DNA from: Geobacter sp. AOG2 | Lineage (GTDB): Bacteria > Desulfobacterota > Desulfuromonadia > Geobacterales > Pseudopelobacteraceae | Assembly: GCF_019972295.1 (NCBI RefSeq) | Contig: NZ_BLJA01000001.1 | Span: 2,142,158-2,174,157, forward strand | Direction: 5' to 3' | Length of the DNA stretch: 32,000 nucleotides | The notes under the pieces: model-generated | What the model saw: only the letters and a program-made list of their open reading frames with translations | The model's database searches: none | What the model was told of the DNA's origin: nothing | Shown: positions 6,668 to 29,588 of the stretch, one piece after another | Layout: every line of letters starts with the position of its first letter | How positions within the stretch are numbered: the stretch's first letter is position 1 | Translations under genes and position numbers: made by a program

Positions 6668-7650
6668 CAGAGAATCAACCGCTACTCGGCGGAGTGAAAC
6701 TCCGCAAACAGTTCCGCGTCAGCGCCGGTCCCGCCTCGCAAACAGGGGTGCTCACCGCGGTGGACGAGGTGGATGTGGAGATCGCCAGGGGAGAAACCGT
6801 CGGCATTGCGGGCGAATCCGGGTGCGGCAAATCGACCCTGGCCAAGCTCCTGGCCGGCCTCTTGCCCTCCGACGGCGGCGAGGTCCGCTACCGCGGTACG
6901 GCCATCGACACCCTCTCCCCGGCGGAACGGAAACAATTCCGGCAGCGGACCCAGATGATCTTCCAGGACCCCTTTTCCTCCCTGAACCCGCGCATGCGCA
7001 TCGGCGATTCGATCGCCGAACCGCTGGTCATTGCCGGAGGCGCTTCCCGGCAGGCCATCCGCGCCAAAATGCTGGAGCTGCTGGAGTCGGTCGGCCTGAA
7101 GGCCGAGCACGCCGACCGTTTCCCCAACGAATTTTCCGGCGGTCAGCGCCAACGCATCGGCATAGCGCGGGCCCTGGCCTCGTCGCCCGAGATCATCATC
7201 GCCGACGAACCGGTCTCCTCTCTCGACATCTCCATTCAGGCCCAGATCATCAACCTGCTCCAGGCCATGAAGTCCGAGCACCACCTGACCATGATCATCG
7301 TGTCCCACGATCTTTCGGTGCTGCGCCATGTATGCGACCGGGTGCTGGTCATGTACCTGGGGGTCATCGTGGAGAGCGCCCCGGCTGCCCAGCTCTTCCA
7401 GCATTTCCAGCATCCCTATACCGAAGCGCTGATCGCGGCCATCCCGCGCATCGCCGGGCAACGCCGCGACGCGCCGGTCCTCCTGGCCGACGACCTCCCC
7501 TCGCCCCTCGCCATCCCCGGCGGCTGCCGTTTCCATCCCCGCTGCCGCTACGCCGCCGAAATCTGCCGCACCACCCCACCCCCTCTGGAGGAGAAACGGG
7601 ACGGCCATTTTGCCGCCTGTCACCTGAGCAGGGACATCTTCGCCGGCTGA
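6664..7650 (+). CDS. Oligopeptide/dipeptide-type ABC transporter ATP-binding protein (OppF/DppF-like)
   Basis: Its ATG overlaps the upstream stop (ATGA at 6664-6667). Walker A GESGCGKST, signature FSGGQRQR, Walker B IIIADEPVSSLD, H-loop VSHDL, and a C-terminal GCRFHPRCRYAAEIC motif. It occupies the 3' part of the long track ORF 5680..7650. Confidence 0.9.
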   Translation: MTENQPLLGGVKLRKQFRVSAGPASQTGVLTAVDEVDVEIARGETVGIAGESGCGKSTLAKLLAGLLPSDGGEVRYRGTAIDTLSPAERKQFRQRTQMIFQDPFSSLNPRMRIGDSIAEPLVIAGGASRQAIRAKMLELLESVGLKAEHADRFPNEFSGGQRQRIGIARALASSPEIIIADEPVSSLDISIQAQIINLLQAMKSEHHLTMIIVSHDLSVLRHVCDRVLVMYLGVIVESAPAAQLFQHFQHPYTEALIAAIPRIAGQRRDAPVLLADDLPSPLAIPGGCRFHPRCRYAAEICRTTPPPLEEKRDGHFAACHLSRDIFAG

Positions 7651-7651
7651 C

Positions 7652-7663
7652 CAGCCGCCTGCT
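7652..7663. repeat. Left copy of the island-flanking direct repeat CAGCCGCCTGCT
   Basis: Exact 12-mer, also present at 13067-13078. It starts 2 nt after the TGA (7648-7650) of the oppF-like gene. Confidence 0.6.
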
Positions 7664-7976
7664 TTGGATACCATTTAAAGTTCTCCAGGCATTTTCTCTT
7701 TAACAGCATGGGCCGGTATAGGGGCTTAAATAGGAAAACTCCCCATTTTAAGCCCTTGATGCAGGTGGAAAACCGGCCACCGAAAACAGACTGGGGTTGA
7801 AAAATTCACCCCTCACGATCCGGGGCGGACGGCGGCAACTTTCATGGTCGGCATGGGGTTGGTATGGGGGTTATGGATGAAATCATCGACACGGTGTTGA
7901 ACGACGTCAAGCAAGGCGTGATCCTTACCAACAATTGTCATAAGCACGACAAGGAAAAGAACAAACCCTGGAAAGC

Positions 7977-8299
7977 TTAGGAGCGCAAATTTAACAGCAA
8001 CATCATCGGCATAGACAGCAAGGTTACTCCGTTGAGGCGCAAGGTCGCTTGAGGTGGATTGAAATAATTTATTAGATAAAGATAAAAGAGATAGTGTGCG
8101 AAGGCGGCTTGGCTTACGCCGATCCTGGACCGTGTTTCGATGATCTCGGCGGGGTCATTTCCATAACTGGCGTAAGGCACGCTTCGTCGAATTCGCGCAT
8201 GGTCCTCGCATCAATCAACCCAATTTCATGCAGGTCTTGCGCCGTTTCGTGCGCCGCCTCCATGGCTTCACTTTTATACGCTCTAACTCTCTTCCTCAT
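7977..8299 (-). pseudogene. Frameshifted HTH antitoxin-like gene (COG2944 / HigA2 / NadS-like)
   Basis: The N-terminal part (MRKRVRAYKSEAMEAAHETAQDLHEIGLIDARTMREFDEACLTPVMEMTP) is in the frame of 8114..8299. The HTH part (AEIIETRSRIGVSQAAFAHYL) continues in the frame of 7977..8180. The two join if one base is restored in the run at 8148-8154 (minus-strand ACCCCGCCGAG). The C-terminus after AFAHYL passes through an AT-rich patch and no longer resembles the family. Confidence 0.65.
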
Positions 8300-8350: not shown

Positions 8351-8677
8351 TCATTTTGCCACCCCCAGGAACACGGCCAGGCACCGCTCAATCTCCACCA
8401 GCGTATCTGCATCAACGTGCCCGAATGCCGGCCCTATCATGTCGTACTTGACGGTCATGGCCTTGTCCACCATTACCTGGGAAGGCTTCTGCAAGCCGTT
8501 CTCGCTGCTTGGCTGGACGGTGACACGCAACAGCGGGGCTTCCACCAGCGTGCTTGTCACCGGCAACACAGTAACAGTGCTATGCCCGTTGAACTGGTCG
8601 GACTGGATCACCAGGGCGGGCCTTGGCTTGCCAAAGTCACCTTGCATAGCAATGGTGACAAGCTCTCCGCGCCTCAT
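8351..8677 (-). CDS. mazF: Type II toxin, PemK/MazF-family endoribonuclease
   Basis: 108 aa with a MazF/PemK-like pattern: RRGELVTI...GKPRPALVIQSD...VTVLPVTS...VMVDKAMTV. Its ATG overlaps the stop of the upstream antitoxin (ATGA at 8674-8677). Confidence 0.85.
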   Translation of the reverse strand: MRRGELVTIAMQGDFGKPRPALVIQSDQFNGHSTVTVLPVTSTLVEAPLLRVTVQPSSENGLQKPSQVMVDKAMTVKYDMIGPAFGHVDADTLVEIERCLAVFLGVAK

Positions 8678-8898
8678 TCAGTCCACCCATCCACGTCCGC
8701 CAAGGCTTCATCCATGAAACGTTGCATATCCGTGTCGGCTTTGTCGGCTTGTGCCACAAGCCGGGATTGACGGCGGCATTCTTCGGCAAAGCCCGGTCGC
8801 CGGGTGTCCGGCACCCAAATCTGCACAGGCCGCAGACCTGCGGCACGCAGGCGATCTCTGTGGCTTTGTACTCGTTGTCTAACAGATTGGGTTCGCAT
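8674..8898 (-). CDS. mazE: Antitoxin partnered with MazF (DUF3018-like / MazE-type)
   Basis: 74 aa. VRQRVQSHRDRLRAAGLRPVQIWVPDTRRPGFAEECRRQS matches, from memory, the small antitoxins found upstream of PemK/MazF toxins. GGAGGA RBS at 8906-8911 (minus). Translationally coupled to mazF. Confidence 0.75.
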   Translation of the reverse strand: MRTQSVRQRVQSHRDRLRAAGLRPVQIWVPDTRRPGFAEECRRQSRLVAQADKADTDMQRFMDEALADVDGWTE

Positions 8899-8914
8899 AA
8901 AAACATCCTCCTTT

Positions 8915-8948
8915 TGTTACATGTAACACCAGGCCGAAAGGATGTCAA
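8915..8948 (-). promoter_or_regulatory. Putative mazEF promoter/operator: -35 TTGACA plus a 14-bp perfect palindrome
   Basis: The minus strand reads TTGACA (8948..8943), 16-18 nt, then TGTTACATGTAACA (perfect palindrome, 8915-8928), then AAAGGAGGA and the ATG at 8898. The palindrome covers the expected -10 position, as expected for an autorepression operator. The -10 hexamer itself is weak. Confidence 0.5.
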
Positions 8949-9034: not shown

Positions 9035-11560
9035 TTATACTCTTTCACCAATTCTACTTAGAAGATCGTTTCTCATCTCCATATAAATCGCACCTATTTT
9101 TGTTATAGACATTAGCATCTTCTTCGCTGTGTCGAAATGTTTAGAATCGGACGTTGCCGTAGCAATTCCATACAGCACAAGCACAAAATCCAATTTTTCT
9201 CCGTCATCTAACTTTTCTATGTCTATCGATGTTAAATATTCATTAGCCTCTTCAAAGTTTTTCAACGCTAAGCTTGCTTTTGCAATAAATATATTACCAA
9301 CTGGGGAAGGTTCGATGGCTATGCTATCAATAAAATATCTCCTTGCCTCAGTAAACTTACCAATGTGGAAATTCAGCTCTCCCAAGATAAAATATGCTCT
9401 AGCTAAATCAGACGGGGACAAGGCTGAACTTTCTTGCAATTGGGTTAGAATCATTAGTGATTCATTCAGGTGATTTTCTTCATCAGTTAAAGTACCTAAA
9501 TAGTATAAGCAATCAGCAAAAAGAACTTTTTCTGAACTTGAAGAACTTGCGAGGTGGCCCTGTTTAAATGATGCAATGGTATTATGAAGAAGATTGATGG
9601 CAGAATTAACGTCTTTGTTCACATAAAGTAGCATCGCCTTCATGGTTTGATAGTGCAGAACTGTTCCGGCCTCTGGGTTCGCATCAAGAATGCGGTCAAT
9701 AATTGAAATCTTTTCTTCCGAAGTTAATTGTTCCCCAACAAGTTGCAGATAAAGATTTAATACCTTTATATCTGTAGTTGTTTCTAGGTCTGAAATTTTT
9801 TTTAATTCTTTATAAGCCAGTTTTATATTTCCAGCTTTCTCCAATTGATACAATGCCTTCAAGTAGGCTATTTCATCATACCATCGCTGGTCTTCGACTG
9901 CTTTTGAATGGAATTTCAGAACTCCGTAATAGTCTTTTCCATTTCCAGCCATATCATAACATTTCTTTAAAAATTGAATTATACCTGTTAGCGCATCAAC
10001 ATCCATAGTTATAAACTTGTCAGCAATATCTGCGCCTGTCTTTATTAAAGGTACGGTATGAGCTCTGTGACAAAGTAAGTACCACGTGAGATGTAAACGA
10101 CCGGCTCTAAGTGCGTCTTTATAGTTCTCGCATGCATATGCTTTTCTAGCCTCACTCATAGCCACACTACTGTACAGCCCCCTGCAGCAGTTTTTAAATT
10201 TTTGACCAGAACCACACAAACATGAATCTTTAGGCCCTGGCTCAAATGTATGCAAATAATGCTGTGTTAAAACTTTGTCTGAGTACGGATAATAAGGATC
10301 AACTTCTTGGTCTAGGACTTCTGGTGAATTGCGTTTAATTCCCCAGATTTTTTGTACTGGAACAAAGAAATTAGGCACAAGCTTATCTTCTTGTGGTGGT
10401 CCTAAAACACACTTACCGTTTATTTTGCGGAAAGGAATGGCGACATTCCGACATTCCCCCAACGATGATAGCCCAGAGATTGCAAGGATCTCTTGCTTAT
10501 CAGAGATCTTATCAGGCGTGCCGAATTCGATCTTATCAGCAACACTATAATTCCAAGCTTCTCCGACAAAAAATACTTCTTTGATGCCATGCTGTTTTGC
10601 TTTTTTTGCAATATTCTGCCAGAATAAATATTTATCTTCTTGATTCCTAAAATTTGTTTGCACCATTTCCAAGCGACGGTGAGAGCTAACCATAAATACC
10701 ACCGTCATATGATACCCGTCTGCTTCTAATAGTTGTTTTGCTGTTTCTAAAAAGTAACTGAACCGGCCCTCGAAGGAGTCGGGCATTTCCTTATAGGTAC
10801 TACCATATCTTTCTTTTGCAGCTTCCAAAATTTCAGCTGGCATTTTTAATGGAAGAAACCTTAAATGAATTGGTTTTAAGTCTGGGATAGATAGCCATTC
10901 CGTTCGATAATCTTCAAAGCTCTGCATGCACGACGGAGTATATTCTTCAAGAAGCTGAAATATTATTCCTGGTTCTATTTTCGTCTTTTCTTTATCGAAT
11001 ATCGGATAAATTCTGTCTGGCCCCAATTTGTCGTCTATATCGTTCACTAAAATGATAAGCACTGTGAAGGCGTGGGCAAGGGCGCTTAGCAATTCAATGC
11101 TCTCTAGATTCTTATCAATCCATCGCCTTTCAACTTTTAAATACCCCTTTTCAGCACCAAACGATGAATCCATTTCAACAACCATTTTGCCTATCGTTTC
11201 GATTTTTTCTAATGGGTTGACTTCCAGTGTAAATGATGGTTCTTTTAGATAATTGTTATGTATAGATACGATTGCTACACTTTTGGTTTCTAAGTCAGAT
11301 TGTTTTACAATTTGATTTCGTGCATCTCTGCACCATATCATTATCGTATCTTTTGCCATAGCTTGTTGCCATAGAGCATACCAATCTTCGAAGTTATGGA
11401 TTTTTGACTTCTCAGACTGCAACGCAAAGGTAACATTGCGTAAAGCTTGGATGCAGGCATTTAAATAAATGACAAACTCATCTGAGTTTTTGTATGACTC
11501 AGCTGCCTTTACCCAATGCGAAAAAGCCTCACGAAGCCGTTTACTGGCAGTCAATTCCAT
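9035..11560 (-). CDS. Orphan 841-aa protein: unrecognised N-terminal ~440 aa, SEC-C zinc-binding motif, C-terminal TPR-like repeat region
   Basis: Uninterrupted 2.5-kb ORF in AT-rich DNA (hand counts: 20/60 G+C at 9061-9120, 25/60 at 10021-10080, against 38/60 at 6001-6060). ATG at 11560 with GAGGA 4 nt upstream. SEC-C motif CLCGSGQKFKNCC at aa 447-459 (nt ~10178-10228). Residues ~470-841 are helical repeats with TPR-like units, e.g. ARAYFILGELNFHIGKFTEARRYFIDSIAIEP. Confidence 0.85.
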   Translation of the reverse strand: MELTASKRLREAFSHWVKAAESYKNSDEFVIYLNACIQALRNVTFALQSEKSKIHNFEDWYALWQQAMAKDTIMIWCRDARNQIVKQSDLETKSVAIVSIHNNYLKEPSFTLEVNPLEKIETIGKMVVEMDSSFGAEKGYLKVERRWIDKNLESIELLSALAHAFTVLIILVNDIDDKLGPDRIYPIFDKEKTKIEPGIIFQLLEEYTPSCMQSFEDYRTEWLSIPDLKPIHLRFLPLKMPAEILEAAKERYGSTYKEMPDSFEGRFSYFLETAKQLLEADGYHMTVVFMVSSHRRLEMVQTNFRNQEDKYLFWQNIAKKAKQHGIKEVFFVGEAWNYSVADKIEFGTPDKISDKQEILAISGLSSLGECRNVAIPFRKINGKCVLGPPQEDKLVPNFFVPVQKIWGIKRNSPEVLDQEVDPYYPYSDKVLTQHYLHTFEPGPKDSCLCGSGQKFKNCCRGLYSSVAMSEARKAYACENYKDALRAGRLHLTWYLLCHRAHTVPLIKTGADIADKFITMDVDALTGIIQFLKKCYDMAGNGKDYYGVLKFHSKAVEDQRWYDEIAYLKALYQLEKAGNIKLAYKELKKISDLETTTDIKVLNLYLQLVGEQLTSEEKISIIDRILDANPEAGTVLHYQTMKAMLLYVNKDVNSAINLLHNTIASFKQGHLASSSSSEKVLFADCLYYLGTLTDEENHLNESLMILTQLQESSALSPSDLARAYFILGELNFHIGKFTEARRYFIDSIAIEPSPVGNIFIAKASLALKNFEEANEYLTSIDIEKLDDGEKLDFVLVLYGIATATSDSKHFDTAKKMLMSITKIGAIYMEMRNDLLSRIGERV

Positions 11561-11780
11561 TTGATCCTCATTTGCATTGCAAGGAGAACTCGGGGACCGA
11601 GAGGACCCACATAATTTCCTCTAAACTTATACTCTTAGATGCGTCTCCTTGGCTGCCCACCCTGTACCTCCAATTCCATTTGGCCAACGGGAATGGCTTT
11701 GACCCGCCAGCCTTTTTGGGCGTGTCGTAAGTCTTGTAAGTGCCTGCGCTGCTGTTGAGCACCTTTAGATGTGTCTTGTA

Positions 11781-12077
11781 TCAAGGCTTGCTTTTCGACT
11801 TCTTAGGCCACTTCTGAGCCCCATGCAGAAACCGCAGAATCTCTATCCGCTCGCCCATGATGCGGTAGATAGTAATAAAAGGGGTCTGACTGATAACCAA
11901 CTCGCGGGTTCCCTTCACTCTCCCAATCCGCCCCATTTCCGGCTGCAAAACAATAAGACTGGTTTGCCGCTCAATCTCCTCATCCTGCGAGATCGCCGCA
12001 AGCGGGTTGTCCTGGGCGATGTAGTCCAGTTGCTCGAAACGTTCCTCTGCGGCAATGGGCAACCATACTAGGATCAC
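11781..12077 (-). CDS. parE: Type II toxin, ParE/RelE superfamily
   Basis: 98 aa with a ParE-like pattern: W...A..DL..I..YIA.DNP.AA...IE......L...P..GR.GRV.GTRELV....PFI..YRI....IEILRFLHGAQ. GTG start overlaps the antitoxin stop (GTGA at 12074-12077). Confidence 0.8.
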   Translation of the reverse strand: MILVWLPIAAEERFEQLDYIAQDNPLAAISQDEEIERQTSLIVLQPEMGRIGRVKGTRELVISQTPFITIYRIMGERIEILRFLHGAQKWPKKSKSKP

Positions 12078-12538
12078 GCGGCACGCCCTTTAGCCTGCTT
12101 TGCCCACGCCTCCCGGCGCTTCGCGCTCATTGCCTTGACCTCGGCATCAGAAAGCCATGCCGCGCTCGGGTTGTCTGCCTGCCGGATACCCTCTGCAACC
12201 TGCTCCCGGAACCACTTGTCATGCTCGGCGGCGTCGAAGGTCCGCTTCATCCGGGCTGCCGCGTCAGGGCGTACCCGCTTCTCGGCAGGGTCATAGTTAC
12301 TGGCATTGACGTTGAACTGCGATATACCAATGCTCTTGAGGTAGTTCACAAGGGTTTCAAACCGGCTGAAAACCCTGACGGCACCACGCCGGGCTGCCAA
12401 AGTCCGTTCCATCATGCCATATTTGATGACGATTCCCCACCCCCCCGGTTGGCCGATGACTTCCGCGCCGCGCACGGCCCCGGCCTCGACCAGGTGTTGC
12501 AGGGTCACATGATCTATTGTGTCCATCGTTGTTGCCAT
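12074..12538 (-). CDS. ParD/stability-determinant-type antitoxin with an extra N-terminal domain
   Basis: The C-terminal ~55 aa (AEHDKWFREQVAEGIRQADNPSAAWLSDAEVKAMSAKRREAW) resemble the short stability-determinant antitoxins paired with ParE toxins. The N-terminal ~95 aa are an additional domain I cannot name. I chose the ATG at 12538 (MATTMDT), 7 nt after GGAGGTG, over the track's GTG at 12547. Confidence 0.7.
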   Translation of the reverse strand: MATTMDTIDHVTLQHLVEAGAVRGAEVIGQPGGWGIVIKYGMMERTLAARRGAVRVFSRFETLVNYLKSIGISQFNVNASNYDPAEKRVRPDAAARMKRTFDAAEHDKWFREQVAEGIRQADNPSAAWLSDAEVKAMSAKRREAWAKQAKGRAA

Positions 12539-12563
12539 ACAACCCACCTCCGGTTACTTACTT

Positions 12564-12741: not shown

Positions 12742-12986
12742 ATTAAAGGGTTTCCACGATAAAGACAGCGAAGTGCTCTTTGATGATCGGTTTGTAAAAC
12801 GTTTTAGGCTTTTGAGAGACATACGCATCAATGGCAAATGGCGTATCTGCTTCAAATGGCTTGGGAACGTACTTCGGGGTGTCACCGGAGGTGTGGTTGA
12901 ATCTCCAGGCCGATTATGATCTGCGGGTTGCCCGGCGAAATATTCGCCTTGCACATTGTGCATCTGGAGCTTGCCGTATAAATTAA
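12742..12986 (+). pseudogene. Fossil higB-higA module (frameshift plus internal deletions)
   Basis: IKGF (12742-12753) shifts by +1 nt into HDKDSEVLFDDRFVKRFR...IRINGKWRICFKW, from 12755. These are the N- and C-terminal HigB (plasmid-maintenance killer) motifs, with about 40 central residues missing. From 12864, in a third frame, TYFGVSPEVWLNLQADYDLRVA is the C-terminal HigA signature, ending at TAA 12984-12986. No intact start codon. Confidence 0.6.
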
Positions 12987-13066
12987 GCAAAATCGAATAG
13001 ATACGTGACAAACCGTAAAGTCCTTTCGAGAACCGGGTCAAAAGAGGGACCTTTTTGCCCCCCGAT

Positions 13067-13078
13067 CAGCCGCCTGCT
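13067..13078. repeat. Right copy of the island-flanking direct repeat CAGCCGCCTGCT
   Basis: Exact match to 7652-7663. It lies ~35 nt upstream of the arsR-family promoter. Confidence 0.6.
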
Positions 13079-13111
13079 CCGAATATTATTAATTCTCCGC
13101 GCTTATTCTCC

Positions 13112-23088: not shown

Positions 23089-24440
23089 CGGGAAGCGCCG
23101 CTTACCGTCGGTTCGGGCTTGCCGAGCAGGAGCCGGTCCACAACCTCCACGCCCTGCATGAAGGAATGATCCATGTTGCCCACCTCGTATTTCCAGGCCC
23201 CGAAACGGCCGCGGGAATAGACGTTGCGGGATTCGAGATACGGCTGAATCAGGTCGAGCGCCCTGTCCCGCCCCAACGTCGGCACCGGATAGGAATAGGG
23301 AATATCGATCAGGTAACGGCTGACGATATCCTCCCTCTGCCTGTTTTCGATCATGCCGCTGTTGACCAGCCCCTGGACCGTTTCGTCCACAATGGCCGCT
23401 GGAGACGCCGGCTTGTGCGGCGAATAGGTGGTCTCGCACATGAGGGAAAACGCATGGTCCGTATCGCCCAGCGGCACATTGTAGGGAGAATAATTGTGAA
23501 AGTTCGTCACCCGGTAGAACGGGCTGTCCTTCTCCGGGAAGTACATCCAGCACTTCGTATCCTCCCGATGCCCTGTAAAGCCGAGTCCAACGATCAGGCC
23601 GCCATTGTGGACCAGGCCCTCCGTGGCGGAAGCAACCGCTTCCGGCACGGCGCTGCACGACCCGACAAACAGGTCCAGCGGGACCGTGGTGATCAACACG
23701 TCATACGATTCCACCCTGCCGTTGGCGAATCTGACCTGTTTCGCCTCCAGATCGACCGTCCGCATCTCGTGATTCAGGTGAATCCTCTCCCTGAGCGGCC
23801 CGGCGATCCCCTCGTAGATGGCCCCGGTCCCCCCCTGTTTCGGGAATTTGAAGGTGTTGTTCGGCCCCCAGCTCAGGTCGTCCAATCCATCGGCGATGTT
23901 CTTTTCAATACGGGCCAGGTCCACCATGCTGACCCGTTCGGCGATCCATTCCTTGCTCATGGTTTCCAGCGGCACGCCCCACACCTTGCGGTTATAGGGC
24001 TCCATGAAGTAGTTAACGATGCCGCTGCCGAAGACCGTGTCCATCCACTCGCGGAAATTGGTTGTATTTACCGGGCTTCCCGAGAGATTGCGCAGTCCTT
24101 CGACGCACGCCTGCAACGCCTCGTCCGGCAGGTGGCGGACGTTGTTCTGGAAGGGATACGGCACCCAGGTTTGCAGGATGCGGACCCAGCTCTCCCGCTG
24201 GTGTTCGTAGTACGAGTCGCCCAGCGCGGCGGCAACGGCCTTGTCGAAATAGTCGTAGTGGGAAAAGAGGACATGCCCGCCGACATCCCAGGTAAAACCG
24301 GAATCGTCGAGAAAAGAGGCGGATAGCCCCCCAACATTACCGTTGCGCTCGAAGAGTTGCCAGTCGGTGTGGCCCAGTTTATCGAGGTGGTAGGCGGCGC
24401 CCAGGCCGGTGGGGCCGGCGCCCAGGATGAGGATGGTCAT
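23085..24440 (-). CDS. FAD-dependent UDP-galactopyranose mutase-like enzyme (long, eukaryote-type subfamily)
   Basis: 451 aa. Dinucleotide fold ILILGAGPTGLGAAYHL, then GGHVLFSHYDYFD, WVPYPFQNN, KCWMYFPE..SPFYRVTNFHNYSP and RGRFGAWKYEVGNMDHSFMQGVE. From memory these align block by block with fungal and kinetoplastid UGM. Confidence 0.65.
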   Translation of the reverse strand: MTILILGAGPTGLGAAYHLDKLGHTDWQLFERNGNVGGLSASFLDDSGFTWDVGGHVLFSHYDYFDKAVAAALGDSYYEHQRESWVRILQTWVPYPFQNNVRHLPDEALQACVEGLRNLSGSPVNTTNFREWMDTVFGSGIVNYFMEPYNRKVWGVPLETMSKEWIAERVSMVDLARIEKNIADGLDDLSWGPNNTFKFPKQGGTGAIYEGIAGPLRERIHLNHEMRTVDLEAKQVRFANGRVESYDVLITTVPLDLFVGSCSAVPEAVASATEGLVHNGGLIVGLGFTGHREDTKCWMYFPEKDSPFYRVTNFHNYSPYNVPLGDTDHAFSLMCETTYSPHKPASPAAIVDETVQGLVNSGMIENRQREDIVSRYLIDIPYSYPVPTLGRDRALDLIQPYLESRNVYSRGRFGAWKYEVGNMDHSFMQGVEVVDRLLLGKPEPTVSGASR

Positions 24441-24510
24441 GCTTTGTCAGTACCTTTTCTATACCTTAAGAGGGGTGGATAATTTCAGGGAAATTGGGCT
24501 TCGAGCAGAA

Positions 24511-25464
24511 TCACGTCTTGCCAAATTTCTTCCTGACCCTGGCTTCAAGAAATGAATCGTGCGATCTTTCAAGAAAACGAGGTGCTCGTCCCATTATTGT
24601 TAAAGCACCGTAAAGATATGCCAGACTTTCCGAAAGTGCCCCAGTATAACGTAATGGCCACTTCATCCCTAGAACCGTACGTAGGCGACATAAAGCAAAC
24701 CTGAAAGCGGGGAAAGGAATGTTATGTTTTTTAGCAAAATAGATTCGATTCCTACTCCAGTAAAACCAGTTTAGAGGATGATCCCTTCGCCCTGTTGACG
24801 ATCCTACTTTATGATAGAGGATTGCGGATGGTATAACATAATTGAAGCTTCCCATATTCCGTACCCGCAAGCTTAGTTCCGAATCCTCCCAATACATAAA
24901 AAAATTTTCATCAAAGCCTTCGATGTTTTCCCACAACTGCCGGCTTCCGAACATTGCACAACCGGTAACAAAGTCTGTAACCGTAATGTCATCGTAACCG
25001 CCATCATCAATGCAGCCTTCTTCTCCATGATATCCTTTTAACTCGGGAAAATACTCCAGTATTCCACCGCAATATTGAATTGTTTCGGGCTCATCATAAT
25101 AGTAGATCTTGCATCCCAAGAGACCTGGATTAGTCAAGACGGAGTGTGCCTGCAACAGACGACTAACAATATCAGGTTTAACAATAGTGTCGTTATTGAG
25201 AAGAAAAATGAAGTCAGCCTTATGACTCAAGGCAAAGCTGATCGCTCTGTTGTTAGCTCTTGCGAATCCAAGATTTTCGGAATTAATAATCAAGAAGACA
25301 TCTGGATATTTCAATTTTATTACTTCCACAGTATTATCAGATGACGCATTATCAACTACCACGACTCTGTAGTTGCTGTAATCTATTGACCTAAGAGATT
25401 CGAGACACTCCACGGTATCAGCCAGACCATTCCAATTTACAATGATGATATAAACAAGTGGCAT
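24511..25464 (-). CDS. Glycosyltransferase family 2
   Basis: 317 aa. IIIVNWNGLADTVECLESL, VVVVDNASSDNT, NLGFARANN, LNNDT and a later WEDSEL (the DxD/ED region of GT2 rhamnosyl/galactosyl-type transferases). Low-GC DNA (25/60 at 25201-25260). Confidence 0.85.
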   Translation of the reverse strand: MPLVYIIIVNWNGLADTVECLESLRSIDYSNYRVVVVDNASSDNTVEVIKLKYPDVFLIINSENLGFARANNRAISFALSHKADFIFLLNNDTIVKPDIVSRLLQAHSVLTNPGLLGCKIYYYDEPETIQYCGGILEYFPELKGYHGEEGCIDDGGYDDITVTDFVTGCAMFGSRQLWENIEGFDENFFMYWEDSELSLRVRNMGSFNYVIPSAILYHKVGSSTGRRDHPLNWFYWSRNRIYFAKKHNIPFPAFRFALCRLRTVLGMKWPLRYTGALSESLAYLYGALTIMGRAPRFLERSHDSFLEARVRKKFGKT

Positions 25465-25511
25465 GCCAGTTAAGTCCGCTCCTGAATGGTAATTCCCTTA
25501 CAAGGGATGTT

Positions 25512-27137
25512 CTATTTCAGCAAAGAGTGCACTGCATCAAGGACCATTTCAACCGTTATGGCGGATATACAAGGGGGTTCACCATCAACAAAACAGAGGT
25601 CTCCACACCCGGAGCACCCCAACTCTGCCTTCACGATCAGATACTCGGAACATAGCGGTCGGCAAAAAGATACCAGGCCCGCTCCGTAAAGTGCAACAAT
25701 CTTTCTATCAAGAGCTGCCGCAATATGCATAACACCTGTATCTGGTGTTACTACAAGGTCAGAAATAGACAATAATGAGACTAGCTGGTTTAGATTTAGC
25801 GTGCCAACCAAATTAGGTAGTGGCCGATCAATCAGAGCATTAATCGTCTCTCCAAGTTCACGCTCACCTTCTCCGCCGACTATCACGGGGAAGATATCCT
25901 TTATCTCTGTCAGTGCACTGACCAGACCGGCGTATTTGTGCGGACTCCATCTTCTCTTTGGGCTCCCGGCTCCGATATTGATAGTAACAACGATGGAGTG
26001 TGGGTTCCACTTGTGTGCTGTTAGAGTCTGAAATACGGCTAACTTATCTGCCTTAGAAACTAGAAGTGACTTATGCAAGTAAGATCGCACGTTCTTACAA
26101 CTTAATTCCTCAGCCATAAATGCCGGCAAATCAGCAATGTGGTACATCATATATGTTGGGATAACTACAGACTGAACATGGTGAACCATGAGTCGCGCCA
26201 GTGGTAGTCTTTCCGCAATGGTGGCAACAGTTACCTTTCCCTTAAGAAGTGTGGCGAATAACACTCCCGTTCCAAGCTCGACCGGTTGGATGATGATGTC
26301 GTAGCGTTCCAAACGTAACTGAAGAACACGTTGGAGAATCCTAAAAAACGCCTTAAATCCTTGCAGTTGAACTTTTTGCTCGTGCCAAGGCGCTTGCCAA
26401 TACTGGAGTCGGTCACAAAATCTCGCTGGCTGCACTCTATGTTGTTCCTCGATTATGCTGCCGCTTCTTCGGGACGCAAGCACCGTTATTTCAGATTCGG
26501 GGTATTTCTCACGTATGGCGAGTAAAGTTGGAAGGGTTAAGACCATATCGCCCAACACGTCAAGACGTATGAAAAGAATCCTGTGGCGGTCAGAACCTTT
26601 TCGAAAATACACAAGGATGCCGAGCAGTGTCTGAAAGACTAAAGCTACGATATAAACGATGCGCACCTTAAACGCTATTTCAAGCTCACGTCTGGCGTAG
26701 CGGCGAGATAAGCGGCTTATTTCTCCCGCGTTGTCCTTTCCTGATTGCAAGAAATCGCGTAGCTTAAGGGTATTTCTCAGGAGATAAACAGCATAAGGGA
26801 TGACGGACGGGACGACCCGATAGAGTTCAAGATCGCCAGGAGCAAAATTGTGCTTAAAAAAAATGAAGACGCTTTCCGAACTCTTACTTGATAGAGCAGC
26901 GGAAAGTTGGTCCTTTCCCTCCGTGATAACAAGGTTGTCAAAGGGAAAACTCTCTGAAGCGGCATAACAGTCGGCCCAGTTGGTCAATTTAACCCTGTGT
27001 AGGATCGCATTGACCTTTACACCAACATACTGTTTTCGAATTTCATCGACAATTGGAAGGAAATGTTCCGAAAAGTCAGCCGAAAATTCAGCGACGACCA
27101 GAATGGCGTTCGTAATGGCACTCGGTGAATTACACAC
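25512..27137 (-). CDS. Glycosyltransferase family 9 domain with a ~180-aa N-terminal extension and a TM helix
   Basis: 541 aa. Residues ~186-541 are GT9-like (ILFIRLDVLGDMVLTLPTLLAIREKYP, GAGSPKRRWSPHKY, TPDTGVMHIAAALDRKIVALYG). Residues ~157-178 (VRIVYIVALVFQTLLGILVYF) are hydrophobic. There is no internal Met before aa 197, so the extension is probably real. GTG start with a weak RBS. Confidence 0.75.
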   Translation of the reverse strand: MCNSPSAITNAILVVAEFSADFSEHFLPIVDEIRKQYVGVKVNAILHRVKLTNWADCYAASESFPFDNLVITEGKDQLSAALSSKSSESVFIFFKHNFAPGDLELYRVVPSVIPYAVYLLRNTLKLRDFLQSGKDNAGEISRLSRRYARRELEIAFKVRIVYIVALVFQTLLGILVYFRKGSDRHRILFIRLDVLGDMVLTLPTLLAIREKYPESEITVLASRRSGSIIEEQHRVQPARFCDRLQYWQAPWHEQKVQLQGFKAFFRILQRVLQLRLERYDIIIQPVELGTGVLFATLLKGKVTVATIAERLPLARLMVHHVQSVVIPTYMMYHIADLPAFMAEELSCKNVRSYLHKSLLVSKADKLAVFQTLTAHKWNPHSIVVTINIGAGSPKRRWSPHKYAGLVSALTEIKDIFPVIVGGEGERELGETINALIDRPLPNLVGTLNLNQLVSLLSISDLVVTPDTGVMHIAAALDRKIVALYGAGLVSFCRPLCSEYLIVKAELGCSGCGDLCFVDGEPPCISAITVEMVLDAVHSLLK

Positions 27138-27184
27138 CTCTAAGAATCCTTATCGCTATCCAGTAATTCGAGATACAACTCATG

Positions 27185-28342
27185 TCAGCATTCATTCATA
27201 GCTATCTCACCCAAGATTTTTTCCATTGTGTCCACTGAAGATTCCCAAGTGAACTTTGTAGCCATCTCCTCTCCCTTTAATGAAAGGTTATTCCGGTAAT
27301 CAATATCGACAATCAGCTTGCACAAGCCGTCGGCAATCGACTCTACATTCCTAGGCTCAACGATATGGGCGGTATCAGCATGAAAAGCGTAATCTTCTGT
27401 ACCAGGCTGCGTTGTTATCACAGCTAGACCACAGGCCATCGCTTCGATAGGAAACAAGGGAAAACTCTCATACCACGACGCGCTGAGGAGAATATCCGCC
27501 TTATTGTAGGCTTGACCGAGCTCTACAGGTTTTAAAAACCCCAGGGGCAGGTAACGGGCTACCGGGTTATCCGGTGGCAGTATGGCGTTTCCATAAACAA
27601 ACCACTCGATGGTGTAATTAGGTAGACGTGATCGAGTTAGCGCCACGGCCTTTGCCATTTCAAGGAAACCTTTCCAAGCCGCGCAGCGTCCACCGTAGCT
27701 GATAATCTTGACGGATTCGGTATCCTTGGCAAAGTGCATGTTCTTGTAAATTTCGTGATCTACAGCATTCAAACATTTAAAGATATCGGGTTTTAGGCAA
27801 TGTGAACGAGCATACTCATTCACCGTATTGTAGAGCCATTGTGAGTTTGCAATCTTGACAATAGGCAATTGATAGGTCATTTCACACTTCGTTTTCTCAT
27901 AGCACTCTCCATCGAAGAATACTGTTTCGAAGTGTTGCATGAAATAGACCTTCTTCCCGCTGCCGAATTTGATGACCGGCTCCACAGTGTCCCACGCCGT
28001 TGCAATGGTGATCACTGAATCTGTTGGCATGATTCGCGCGAAATAATCATTTGTTATGGCAGCCTTCATCTCCTGAGACCTGTAGTTAAAACTGGCTATT
28101 TCGATCATATTCAAAATACTATGTTTGAATTCAGAAATGCTTGACAGTTTCAGCCTATTCTTCTCTCTCAACAGAAAAGAGGCGTCACATCTTATCCATT
28201 TTGGCATAGCACTATGCACACCAGGCGTAATTATGACGTCATGGCCTTTACGAGCAAGTCCATCCGCGTATTTTAATATACAGTAAATGCCACCGCTAAA
28301 ATTGGTGGCACTCAGAGGAGGAGTTACAAAATTAAGCTTCAC
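27185..28342 (-). CDS. Glycosyltransferase, GT-B fold (GT4-like)
   Basis: 385 aa. N-terminal GGIYCILKYADGLARKGHDV and C-terminal ADILLSASWYESFPLFPIEAMACGLAVITT (the E-x7-E region). GTG start 5 nt after AGGAGG; overlaps the wzt end by 11 nt. Confidence 0.8.
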   Translation of the reverse strand: MKLNFVTPPLSATNFSGGIYCILKYADGLARKGHDVIITPGVHSAMPKWIRCDASFLLREKNRLKLSSISEFKHSILNMIEIASFNYRSQEMKAAITNDYFARIMPTDSVITIATAWDTVEPVIKFGSGKKVYFMQHFETVFFDGECYEKTKCEMTYQLPIVKIANSQWLYNTVNEYARSHCLKPDIFKCLNAVDHEIYKNMHFAKDTESVKIISYGGRCAAWKGFLEMAKAVALTRSRLPNYTIEWFVYGNAILPPDNPVARYLPLGFLKPVELGQAYNKADILLSASWYESFPLFPIEAMACGLAVITTQPGTEDYAFHADTAHIVEPRNVESIADGLCKLIVDIDYRNNLSLKGEEMATKFTWESSVDTMEKILGEIAMNEC

Positions 28343-29588
28343 CGGGGCCTCCTGTCGTTCTAGGCGATACCAACCACGAATCAGGCAGCTTCATGTAACC
28401 CTTGTAACCTTCACCATTTATTTCAAGTAGCGAATCATCCCGCAACACGTCAAAGGCACACAAACACTCGTTCTGGTCGAAACAGGTGGAGTTCCCCCAA
28501 ATGGCTCCTTCGACCCGATAGTGGCCTGAATGAAATAGTTTCATCGGTATCTTGAGTATGTATTCATTAATACCGAGACTTACATGTGTCATGCTGTCCA
28601 GAATGCACGATGACAGCAAAGGGATACCGATGGAATTGTAGATGGTGATGCCACAGTTTATGTTTTTATTGAAACCTATTTCAACGACTATCGACAGGTG
28701 CACGTTGTCGCGTTGGCTCAGCACGCCGACGTCTCCACCCTCAATAGAGACAGACTTGAATCTGTTTATCTTTGCCGAGGGGCTAAGCTGTTGCTGCTTT
28801 TGTAGGTCCAGATATTTAGCAAAAAGCGCTTCGAAGTCGGTGCTTGATCCAGCTATGGCCCCAGCATGCATACAGAGGCAACTACTACACATTGCCTTGA
28901 TTGCACCAAGATTGTGGCTCACGAACAACACTGTCCTTCCTTCTTTAGATGAGACCTCCTCCATTTTCCCGAGACATTTTGCCTGAAACAGAACATCCCC
29001 GACCGCCAGGACCTCATCGACGACAAGAATCTCCGGCTCCAGATGGGCCGCCACGGCAAAGGCCAGCCTTACGTACATCCCCGAGGAATAGCGCTTAACC
29101 GGTGTATCGAGAAACTTCTCGATCTCGGCAAAGTCGACGATCTCGTCGAACTTTTTCCTGATCTCCGCCCGCCCCATCCCCAGGATGGCGCCGTTGAGGT
29201 AGATGTTCTCCCGGCCGGTCAGCTCGGGATGAAAACCGGTCCCCACCTCCAGCAGGCTGGCCACCCTTCCCTTGATGCGGACGCTGCCGGTGGTCGGTTC
29301 GGTGATGCGGCTGAGAATCTTGAGCAGCGTCGATTTGCCGGCGCCGTTACGGCCGATGATGCCGATGCGGTCCCCCTGCTTGACCTCGAAGGACACATCC
29401 TTCAGCGCCCAGAACTCTTCCCGCTCCGCACTGCGCGTCGTTGCCCCGCCCCGCCCCAGCAGCCTGCGGCCGAGAGTTTTCACGCCGTCGCTCAGCACGT
29501 CGCGCAAGGCCACATACGGCTGTTGGCCGGACTGGTGCCGCAGGAGGTATTTCTTGCCGAGATTTTCGACCGTAATGACCGTGGACAT
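28332..29588 (-). CDS. wzt: Polysaccharide ABC exporter ATP-binding protein with a C-terminal glycan-binding-type extension (Wzt/TagH-like)
   Basis: 418 aa from the ATG at 29588 (MSTVITVENLGKKY). FWALKDVSFEV, Walker A GRNGAGKST, GFHPELTGRENI, signature YSSGMYVRLAFA, Walker B ILVVDEVLAVGD, H-loop VSHN. A ~165-aa extra C-terminal domain follows, as in O-antigen Wzt proteins. Confidence 0.9.
   Translation of the reverse strand: MSTVITVENLGKKYLLRHQSGQQPYVALRDVLSDGVKTLGRRLLGRGGATTRSAEREEFWALKDVSFEVKQGDRIGIIGRNGAGKSTLLKILSRITEPTTGSVRIKGRVASLLEVGTGFHPELTGRENIYLNGAILGMGRAEIRKKFDEIVDFAEIEKFLDTPVKRYSSGMYVRLAFAVAAHLEPEILVVDEVLAVGDVLFQAKCLGKMEEVSSKEGRTVLFVSHNLGAIKAMCSSCLCMHAGAIAGSSTDFEALFAKYLDLQKQQQLSPSAKINRFKSVSIEGGDVGVLSQRDNVHLSIVVEIGFNKNINCGITIYNSIGIPLLSSCILDSMTHVSLGINEYILKIPMKLFHSGHYRVEGAIWGNSTCFDQNECLCAFDVLRDDSLLEINGEGYKGYMKLPDSWLVSPRTTGGPGEA

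Follow-up and report, generated by a model that had tools for sequence, protein, structure and literature searches.

We analyzed a 32,000-nucleotide (nt) stretch of the genome of Geobacter sp. AOG2 (contig NZ_BLJA01000001.1, positions 2,142,158–2,174,157; hereafter, the window) and, within it, an open reading frame (ORF) encoding a protein of 841 residues. Comparisons with its relatives show that the predicted protein joins two modules, each mobile in its own right. The N-terminal module belongs to the family of the Ea47 protein of bacteriophage lambda, and the C-terminal module combines a SEC-C zinc knuckle with helical repeats of the tetratricopeptide (TPR) type. The gene is foreign, intact and selectively maintained, and represents a recent horizontal acquisition within a small islet rich in toxin–antitoxin (TA) genes. 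At NCBI its product is recorded, with 100% identity, as "SEC-C domain-containing protein [Geobacter sp. AOG2]".

Family size and modular architectures

A previous interpretation of this DNA, made from the letters and ORF translations (the sequence-only reading), had called the protein an orphan. This label is corrected by an exhaustive search with HMMER, which covered 1.84 billion cluster representatives; the correction holds even if the protein has no immune role. Matches at E ≤0.001 number 1350, of which 342 reach E ≤1e-30, both counts taking in the two modules (Ea47 and SEC-C/TPR). Architectures were assigned to the best 154 representatives with custom domain hidden Markov models. Stand-alone Ea47 proteins of ∼400–460 residues account for 103 of these, and another 26 consist of the SEC-C/TPR module only (∼450–480 residues), with SEC-C at the extreme N-terminus. 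Fusions of Ea47 with SEC-C, with or without a helical or TPR region, number 20. Three more combine Ea47 with other domains (one with DUF5677), one (P0129) joins Ea47 to a SEC-C motif only, and one (P0075) carries a different N-terminal domain with the same SEC-C/TPR module.

Distant relatives, 26–46% identical, have the fusion as well, and Ea47 and the SEC-C knuckle have become joined in several arrangements. In P0071, assigned to the fusion class, the knuckle lies N-terminal to Ea47, and a recurrent group of ∼575-residue fusions stops past the first helical subdomain. A genome scan yielded 34 loci of Ea47-only genes, from Proteobacteria, Actinomycetes, Planctomycetes, Nitrospirales, lineages of the candidate phyla radiation and a Promethearchaeota metagenome-assembled genome (MAG). 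No description of the Ea47–SEC-C–TPR architecture, or of SEC-C/TPR as an exchangeable cassette, was found in the literature.

Two Ea47-domain members, P0041 (928 residues) and P0044 (720 residues), share a different, unannotated C-terminal domain (IRNIELD...PPVLLFR...WPW...GGLLT[VI]TVMGKIP), and in P0037 DUF5677 is placed ahead of Ea47; the Ea47 domain thus combines with several other modules. The N-terminal domain of P0075 displays, at residues 139–169, a D...ELK pattern that recalls PD-(D/E)xK nucleases, as a motif without Pfam or PADLOC support.

The Ea47-family domain

The sequence-only reading could place no motif in residues 1–440, most of which are now assigned to the Ea47 family. The cluster of the query (P0001) and its relatives carry a precomputed match to the Pfam family PF26900 (Phage_lambda_Ea47). 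This family was absent from the Pfam set used for the window scan, which is why that scan gave an empty N-terminus, and the PF26900 score of the query is the precomputed record only. The 410-position profile phrog_19262 matches residues 8–337 with its positions 9–328 (E = 7e-25), and tblastn against ea47 of lambda (NC_001416) and lambdoid phages aligns residues 7–336 (330 residues) at 28.5% identity (E ∼5e-22). In the family alignment, lambda Ea47 aligns across the whole domain. The family is catalogued in Pfam and PHROGs but uncharacterised, and to our knowledge Ea47 is one of a small number of lambda proteins to which no function has been assigned.

AlphaFold2 modeling of residues 1–440 with a 97-sequence alignment gave a predicted local distance difference test score (pLDDT) of 89.6 and a predicted template modeling score (pTM) of 0.85. 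In this model, a four-helix bundle (residues 4–87) is followed by a β/α part (residues 93–177), a variable linker and an α/β subdomain (residues 263–406). The fold is confidently predicted and is without a match in the PDB. The family profile likewise gave 0 matches against PDB sequences, and a search of BFVD returned only small uncharacterised phage proteins that match one lobe over ∼160–190 columns.

Twenty alignment columns are invariant throughout the family. They include Tyr23, Asn34, Gln38, Arg41, Thr44, Gln48, Trp60, Tyr61, Trp76 and Arg81, as well as Asn82, Lys86, Asp89, Ser94, Trp147, Glu156, Lys310, Trp336 and Glu357; Glu144 and Glu334 are near-invariant. Many of the invariant residues lie, in the model, on one face of helices 2 (Asn34, Gln38, Arg41, Thr44 and Gln48) and 4 (Arg81, Asn82, Lys86 and Asp89). 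This predicted polar face, together with the acidic residues Glu144, Glu156, Glu334 and Glu357, is compatible with binding of nucleic acids or nucleotides, or with catalysis.

Two nuclease-like assignments of this domain were considered. The invariant RNxIVK motif (Arg81-Asn82-x3-Lys86) was read as a HEPN signature and rejected, as a lysine replaces the histidine of Rx4-6H; no HEPN family of Pfam matched any of the 97 members, and no HEPN structure was found among the Foldseek matches. A PD-(D/E)xK reading of the second subdomain gave only noise-level matches to BglI and EcoRI, in one member each, and the order of strands and helices does not fit.

The SEC-C/TPR module and the model of the whole protein

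The SEC-C zinc knuckle and the TPR-like repeats from residue ∼470 to 841 had been recognized in the sequence-only reading, and both assignments stand. The SEC-C motif (CLCGSGQKFKNCC, residues 447–459) scores 21.7 bits against PF02810, compared to a cut-off of 20.4, and is predicted to bind metal. It is followed by a conserved helical subdomain with the consensus TWYxLxHRAHTxP...PRW, which is the last part kept in the recurrent ∼575-residue relatives, and then by a putative TPR-type superhelix. TPR sequence models remain under the Pfam cut-offs (23.8 versus 27 for TPR_2). In the AlphaFold2 model of the full-length protein (pLDDT 92.6, pTM 0.56), residues 466–840 are all-helical and resemble TPR superhelices in the PDB, with 244 matches at E ≤1e-3; consensus TPR, OGT, LGN and APC/C TPR structures are matched at a probability of 1.0. 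This pTM and the disordered segment at residues 412–431 suggest that the protein would consist of two rigid bodies.

The sequence-only reading had also noted the lack of a P-loop and of an NTPase switch, in agreement with our results. The 841 residues contain no Walker A motif, and no NTPase family (NACHT, NB-ARC or AAA) was matched in the Pfam, NCBIfam and PADLOC scans, so the protein does not qualify as a STAND, Avs or NLR-like protein. Nor does the sequence contain a hydrophobic stretch of the kind expected for a membrane helix. A PADLOC run, recommended with that reading, yielded no defense system model for the focal protein: no model of PADLOC-DB v2.0.0 covers more than a short motif, and the matches are local, namely of the SEC-C region to E2, E1-E2 and PDC-S12, and a weak one to TPR. 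Among 26 SEC-C/TPR modules (C-modules), the SEC-C region is matched by the CBASS E2 model in 23 and by the PDC-S12 model in 10.

Origin and maintenance of the gene

The focal ORF has a G+C content of 0.379 (0.47, 0.33 and 0.34 at the three codon positions), compared to 0.62 for the window once two low-G+C blocks are set aside. The sequence-only reading had given ∼63% for the surroundings; the TA genes on either side of the ORF are in fact intermediate, at 0.51–0.54. The compositional shift, which had been placed within ∼50 nt of both ends of the ORF, does lie within ∼50 nt at the 3′ end, but at the 5′ end it is located within ∼50–100 nt (100-nt windows). The foreign origin and the island location, both proposed earlier, stand: the gene has 38% G+C in a chromosome of ∼62%, and it lies in a small islet bracketed by a repeat.

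At the composition of the ORF, 841 stop-free codons have a chance probability of ∼1e-27. Compared to a 92.8%-identical copy in a metagenome contig (L046), the ratio of nonsynonymous to synonymous substitution rates (dN/dS) is 0.22 over 249 codons. Both values bear out the earlier argument that the intact 2,526-nt frame implies selection. The gene also has its own GAGGA ribosome-binding site, as had been claimed, and a search of the 220-nt gap upstream revealed no sigma-70-like promoter. The query ends six codons short of its 91%-identical relative, and it lacks the tail (PNxFGxGIN) found in many C-modules. Damage by C-terminal truncation was considered and rejected: the 91% relative ends at the same place, six codons on, which makes the missing tail a feature of the lineage.

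Genomic context of relatives

A 46%-identical full-length fusion adjoins a ParE/Phd pair, and a 54%-identical relative of 575 residues belongs to an element whose other genes include those for integrase, Rep, resolvase and Hypoth_Ymh. The copy in L046 is a 3′ remnant situated between UvrD-helicase/NACHT genes and an NTase-conflict gene. In this contig (2491–5570), a gene for a 706-residue NACHT protein is followed, after ∼250 nt, by a 236-residue TPR ORF that is 91% identical to the focal C-terminus; the TPR piece is either a remnant or a separate repeat partner that the NACHT protein has acquired.

Stand-alone SEC-C/TPR genes have varied neighbors. On the Bradyrhizobium plasmid pBBta01, such a gene lies 18 nt downstream of an HNH-like gene, whose product has a CxxC...DH...CxxCN signature read as HNH and matches the PtuB and PDC-M01B models (best E = 3e-7); the same island also holds two TIR genes and caspase, metallophosphoesterase, Fic and ImmA genes. 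In an Omnitrophica MAG (L009/L010), a HEPN_Toprim_N/Toprim gene is located directly downstream of the SEC-C/TPR gene; the possibility that this neighbor is a divergent Ea47 was rejected. The Mesorhizobium copy is flanked by two giant AAA ATPases, and further copies adjoin resolvase/ArdC, insertion sequence/integrase or HigBA genes.

At Ea47-only loci, the G+C content of the Ea47 gene is nearly always below that of the locus. One such gene (L012, 10001–11269, at the same place as in L007) has a G+C content of 0.34 inside a cobalamin-biosynthesis operon of 0.55, with no upstream intergenic gap and no mobility gene nearby. No neighbor recurs across 32 loci, and an all-against-all comparison of 233 neighbors gave one pair only. 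Downstream ORFs of ∼192–203 residues at three loci (L001, L002 and L005) were considered as a conserved partner and proved to be mutually unrelated.

Comparison with known systems

Lambda Ea47 (PF26900, PHROG 19262) shares with the focal protein homology over residues 3–412, a two-lobed domain of ∼410 residues and the invariant residues. Lambda Ea47 and most relatives are stand-alone proteins of ∼410 residues, whereas the focal gene adds SEC-C and a helical/TPR module of ∼380 residues. The CxCxSGx8CC motif is common to the SecA C-terminal metal-binding domain, YchJ and YecA; the likeness is confined to ∼20 residues, and the rest of the focal protein is unrelated to these proteins.

STAND, Avs and NLR-type proteins have the same layout, with an N-terminal functional domain and a C-terminal TPR array in one chain, and occur in defense islands. 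The focal protein differs from them in having a SEC-C knuckle in place of an NTPase switch. CapRel-type fused toxin–antitoxins offer a conceptual parallel, as single chains whose C-terminal part, a sensor or antidote, controls the active domain at the N-terminus, but no similarity in sequence or fold was detected (one Foldseek match at noise level, E = 0.23, TM score 0.12).

Rugutis (pUCCL633_059), a validated single-gene antiphage protein of 359 residues from a lactococcal plasmid, has an N-terminal SEC-C motif (PMC11381338). Like the focal protein, it is a single polypeptide with a SEC-C knuckle, which in Rugutis is directly followed by a domain without a PDB match; the stand-alone C-modules also begin with SEC-C. 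It differs in that its published description, on which this comparison is based, gives it no Ea47 domain. A tblastn search with either of the C-module queries gave no match to a Lactococcus plasmid.

Possible function

We tentatively propose that the focal protein is a self-contained conflict protein that acts in anti-phage defense or abortive infection, a proposal whose chances we put somewhat below even. The TPR array would be a sensor that binds a phage or other foreign protein. Since the SEC-C/TPR cassette pairs with nuclease-type genes and domains and sits in conflict islands, the Ea47 domain most likely occupies the effector position, a place that other versions of the module may give to an HNH-like or Toprim protein or to a different N-terminal domain. 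Ligand binding would free or activate the Ea47 domain via the flexible linker. The SEC-C knuckle could tether the protein to a partner in the cell, much as the metal-binding domain of SecA docks on ribosomes and SecB, or mediate assembly. The sequence-only reading had compared the arrangement to the effector-plus-sensor logic of single-polypeptide immune proteins, and this idea gains support from SEC-C/TPR modules that stand by themselves beside an HNH-like or Toprim gene or are fused to another N-terminal domain. Also in favor of the proposal are the SEC-C precedents in immunity (Rugutis, and the CBASS E2 and PDC-S12 models), the NACHT/NTase-conflict surroundings of the remnant in L046, and the lack of a recurrent neighbor, in keeping with an autonomous gene.

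A more general proposal, which we regard as rather unlikely, is that the whole Ea47 family, including lambda Ea47, provides a new-fold effector or target-binding domain of widespread single-gene conflict systems. SEC-C/TPR would then be an exchangeable, NTPase-less sensor cassette for Ea47, HNH-like, Toprim and other effectors, with SEC-C coupling or docking the parts.

Several observations weigh against a defensive role. No consistent PADLOC match and no consistent Pfam (catalytic) family were found among the 97 Ea47-domain proteins, and Foldseek identified no PDB fold for the domain (best E = 0.012, TM score 0.11); the term effector is thus a positional analogy only. Most Ea47 members stand alone without a fused or adjacent regulator, which is awkward for a toxic effector, and no split pair of Ea47 and SEC-C/TPR genes was found. 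We found no reported function for lambda Ea47 in the literature. The lambda gene is expressed early in the lytic cycle, which suggests a role on the side of the phage. Among 150 neighbors within ±3 genes of Ea47-only genes, most are unrelated housekeeping genes; examples of such settings are a cobalamin operon, with an Ea47-only gene in its interior, and the interval separating GGDEF and ligA genes. The same list includes AbiU, PDC-S06, PDC-S08, PDC-S22, PDC-S35, PDC-M34A/B, a C5-methylase, two Mrr-type nucleases, two integrases and two AriA-like ATPases. The context check proposed with the sequence-only reading produced some defense-related neighbors, but many of the neighbors of Ea47-only genes are of the housekeeping type. 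As the count has no matched background control and was made with a crude ORF caller, an enrichment of defense genes near Ea47-only genes is only suggestive. A defense role is plausible from context, the family members being known from sequence and prediction.

The phage origin of the founding member raises the alternative that the protein is an accessory of a phage or mobile element and acts for the invader, in counter-defense or host takeover. The Ea47 domain would then bind or inactivate a host factor, and the chromosomal copies would be cargo of degraded elements. We consider this unlikely, while giving it some weight: ea47 lies in the non-essential b region of lambda, relatives are located on plasmids amid transposases, one stand-alone SEC-C/TPR gene adjoins an ArdC-type anti-restriction gene and a resolvase, and low-G+C single-gene insertions are frequent. 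However, the informative neighbors of close relatives and of C-module copies are of the defense type (NACHT, TIR, caspase, HNH and Toprim), not leading regions or anti-defense clusters. The islet in the window has no phage or plasmid backbone genes, and a scan of IMG/VR viral contigs with the patterns of this clade revealed no relatives. TA pairs adjoin the focal gene, its 46%-identical relative and a decayed C-module copy, no partner gene is conserved at the 32 loci, and the predicted two-body architecture with a flexible linker would suit a fused addiction design. These features could be explained by a TA-like addiction gene that stabilizes the islet, with Ea47 as the toxin, the C-terminal module as its antidote in cis, and no dedicated anti-phage role. 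We judge this improbable. In most members Ea47 stands by itself and has no antidote, either fused or adjacent, which makes constitutive toxicity of Ea47 unlikely, and elsewhere the C-module is paired with nuclease-like proteins encoded by genes of their own. Nor is the focal gene part of a two-gene type II TA system, as the ParE/antitoxin and MazEF pairs are each complete and self-contained.

It is very improbable that the gene is inert hitchhiking DNA headed for decay, with an intact frame that merely reflects recent arrival. Frameshifted or truncated TA remnants nearby, truncated or fragmented relatives (L046 and L054), and the stop codon six codons ahead of that in the 91% relative could be read in this way, but the chance probability of the 841-codon frame at 38% G+C and the dN/dS to the closest copy argue for maintenance, and the full fusion architecture is kept down to 26–28% identity. 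We give the least credence to a cellular proteostasis factor, or a factor associated with the Sec system or ribosome, in which, by analogy with SecA, YecA and YchJ, binding to ribosomes or SecB would fall to SEC-C and the TPR region would be a co-chaperone scaffold. The SEC-C motif does match YchJ/YecA-type models, the metal-binding domain of SecA is reported to bind ribosomes as well as SecB, and the TPR fold is like that of generic scaffold proteins. The distribution is nevertheless patchy, with only 7 close relatives in 5.8 billion proteins, the G+C content is foreign, the genes are located in islets or mobile elements, and the 32 loci have no conserved housekeeping synteny.

If the focal protein is an immune protein, as we tentatively propose, it would add a single-chain, NTPase-less sensor–effector design and a new effector fold, and would point to what the SEC-C knuckle, also present in Rugutis, CBASS E2 and PDC-S12, may do. 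The connection of Ea47 to a cross-phylum family, and its fusion to a putative TPR sensor in defense islands, also provides a testable hypothesis for the lambda gene that is tractable in E. coli and lambda.

The islet and the remainder of the window

The features of the focal gene and its surroundings are collected in Table 1. The gene is separated by 220 nt from the ParE stop codon and by 136 nt from the MazE start codon. The sequence-only reading had placed it between intact, co-directional parDE and mazEF pairs; the ParE and MazEF families are confirmed, but the partner of ParE is not a classical ParD. The ParE toxin matches PF05016 (E = 6e-14). Its antitoxin is unusual at 157 residues; the N-terminus resembles ParC partition-associated proteins (NF041544, 42.7 bits versus a cut-off of 95), and a short C-terminal stretch is RelB-like, below the curated cut-off. 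The MazE-like and PemK/MazF proteins match PF11455 (E = 9e-35) and PF02452 (E = 4e-22), respectively. Directly 5′ of the MazE start, an overlapping palindrome (ACATGTAACA...) at 8910–8933 looks like an operator.

Table 1. Coordinates of the focal gene, its parts and the surrounding islet in the window
Feature	Position	Strand	Description
Direct repeat, left copy	7630–7675	+	Overlaps the 3′ end of a (+) ORF with stop at 7650
Downstream co-directional TA pair	8351–8898	−	MazE-like, 8674–8898; PemK/MazF, 8351–8677; 4-nt overlap
Stretch copied in metagenome contig L046	8993–9786	−	794 nt, 92.8% DNA identity
Focal ORF	9035–11560	−	841 aa (amino acids), ATG start; Ea47-like domain + SEC-C + TPR
TPR-type superhelix (predicted)	9041–9826	−	aa 579–840; sequence matches below cut-off, AlphaFold2 fold matches
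Helical subdomain (predicted)	9839–10165	−	aa 466–574; conserved, after SEC-C
SEC-C zinc knuckle (predicted)	10184–10228	−	aa 445–459; Cys447, Cys449, Cys458, Cys459
Linker	10268–10324	−	aa 413–431; low confidence, probably flexible; pLDDT <50 at 412–431
Ea47-family domain	10325–11554	−	aa 3–412; PF26900, phrog_19262
Ribosome-binding site GAGGA	11565–11569	−	4 nt 5′ of the focal ATG
Upstream co-directional TA pair	11781–12547	−	ParE toxin, 11781–12077; 157-aa antitoxin, 12074–12547; 4-nt overlap
Direct repeat, right copy	13045–13090	+	Imperfect, 46 nt, 74% identity, 12-nt exact core

The two copies of the direct repeat bracket the entire 5.4-kb lower-G+C islet, and the repeat resembles an att-type target duplication. 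The ORF overlapped by the left copy looks like an ABC-transporter ATPase, judged from its translation only. No tRNA gene is present in the window, and no integrase family was matched among the islet ORFs scanned. Two decayed antitoxin genes were read by eye from the translations: a COG2944/HigA-2-like remnant at 7977–8299 (−), split over two frames (8114–8299 and 7977–8180), and the C-terminal end of a HigA/XRE-type antitoxin at 12831–12986 (+). Neither remnant has a Pfam match. With these remnants, the islet looks like a graveyard of TA modules.

The second low-G+C block of the window (24400–29000, G+C 0.40–0.48) contains four co-directional ORFs on the (−) strand. Three of the four match glycosyltransferases (GT9 heptosyltransferase-like, GT4-like and GT2-like), and the block is probably a variable locus for lipopolysaccharide or another surface polysaccharide.

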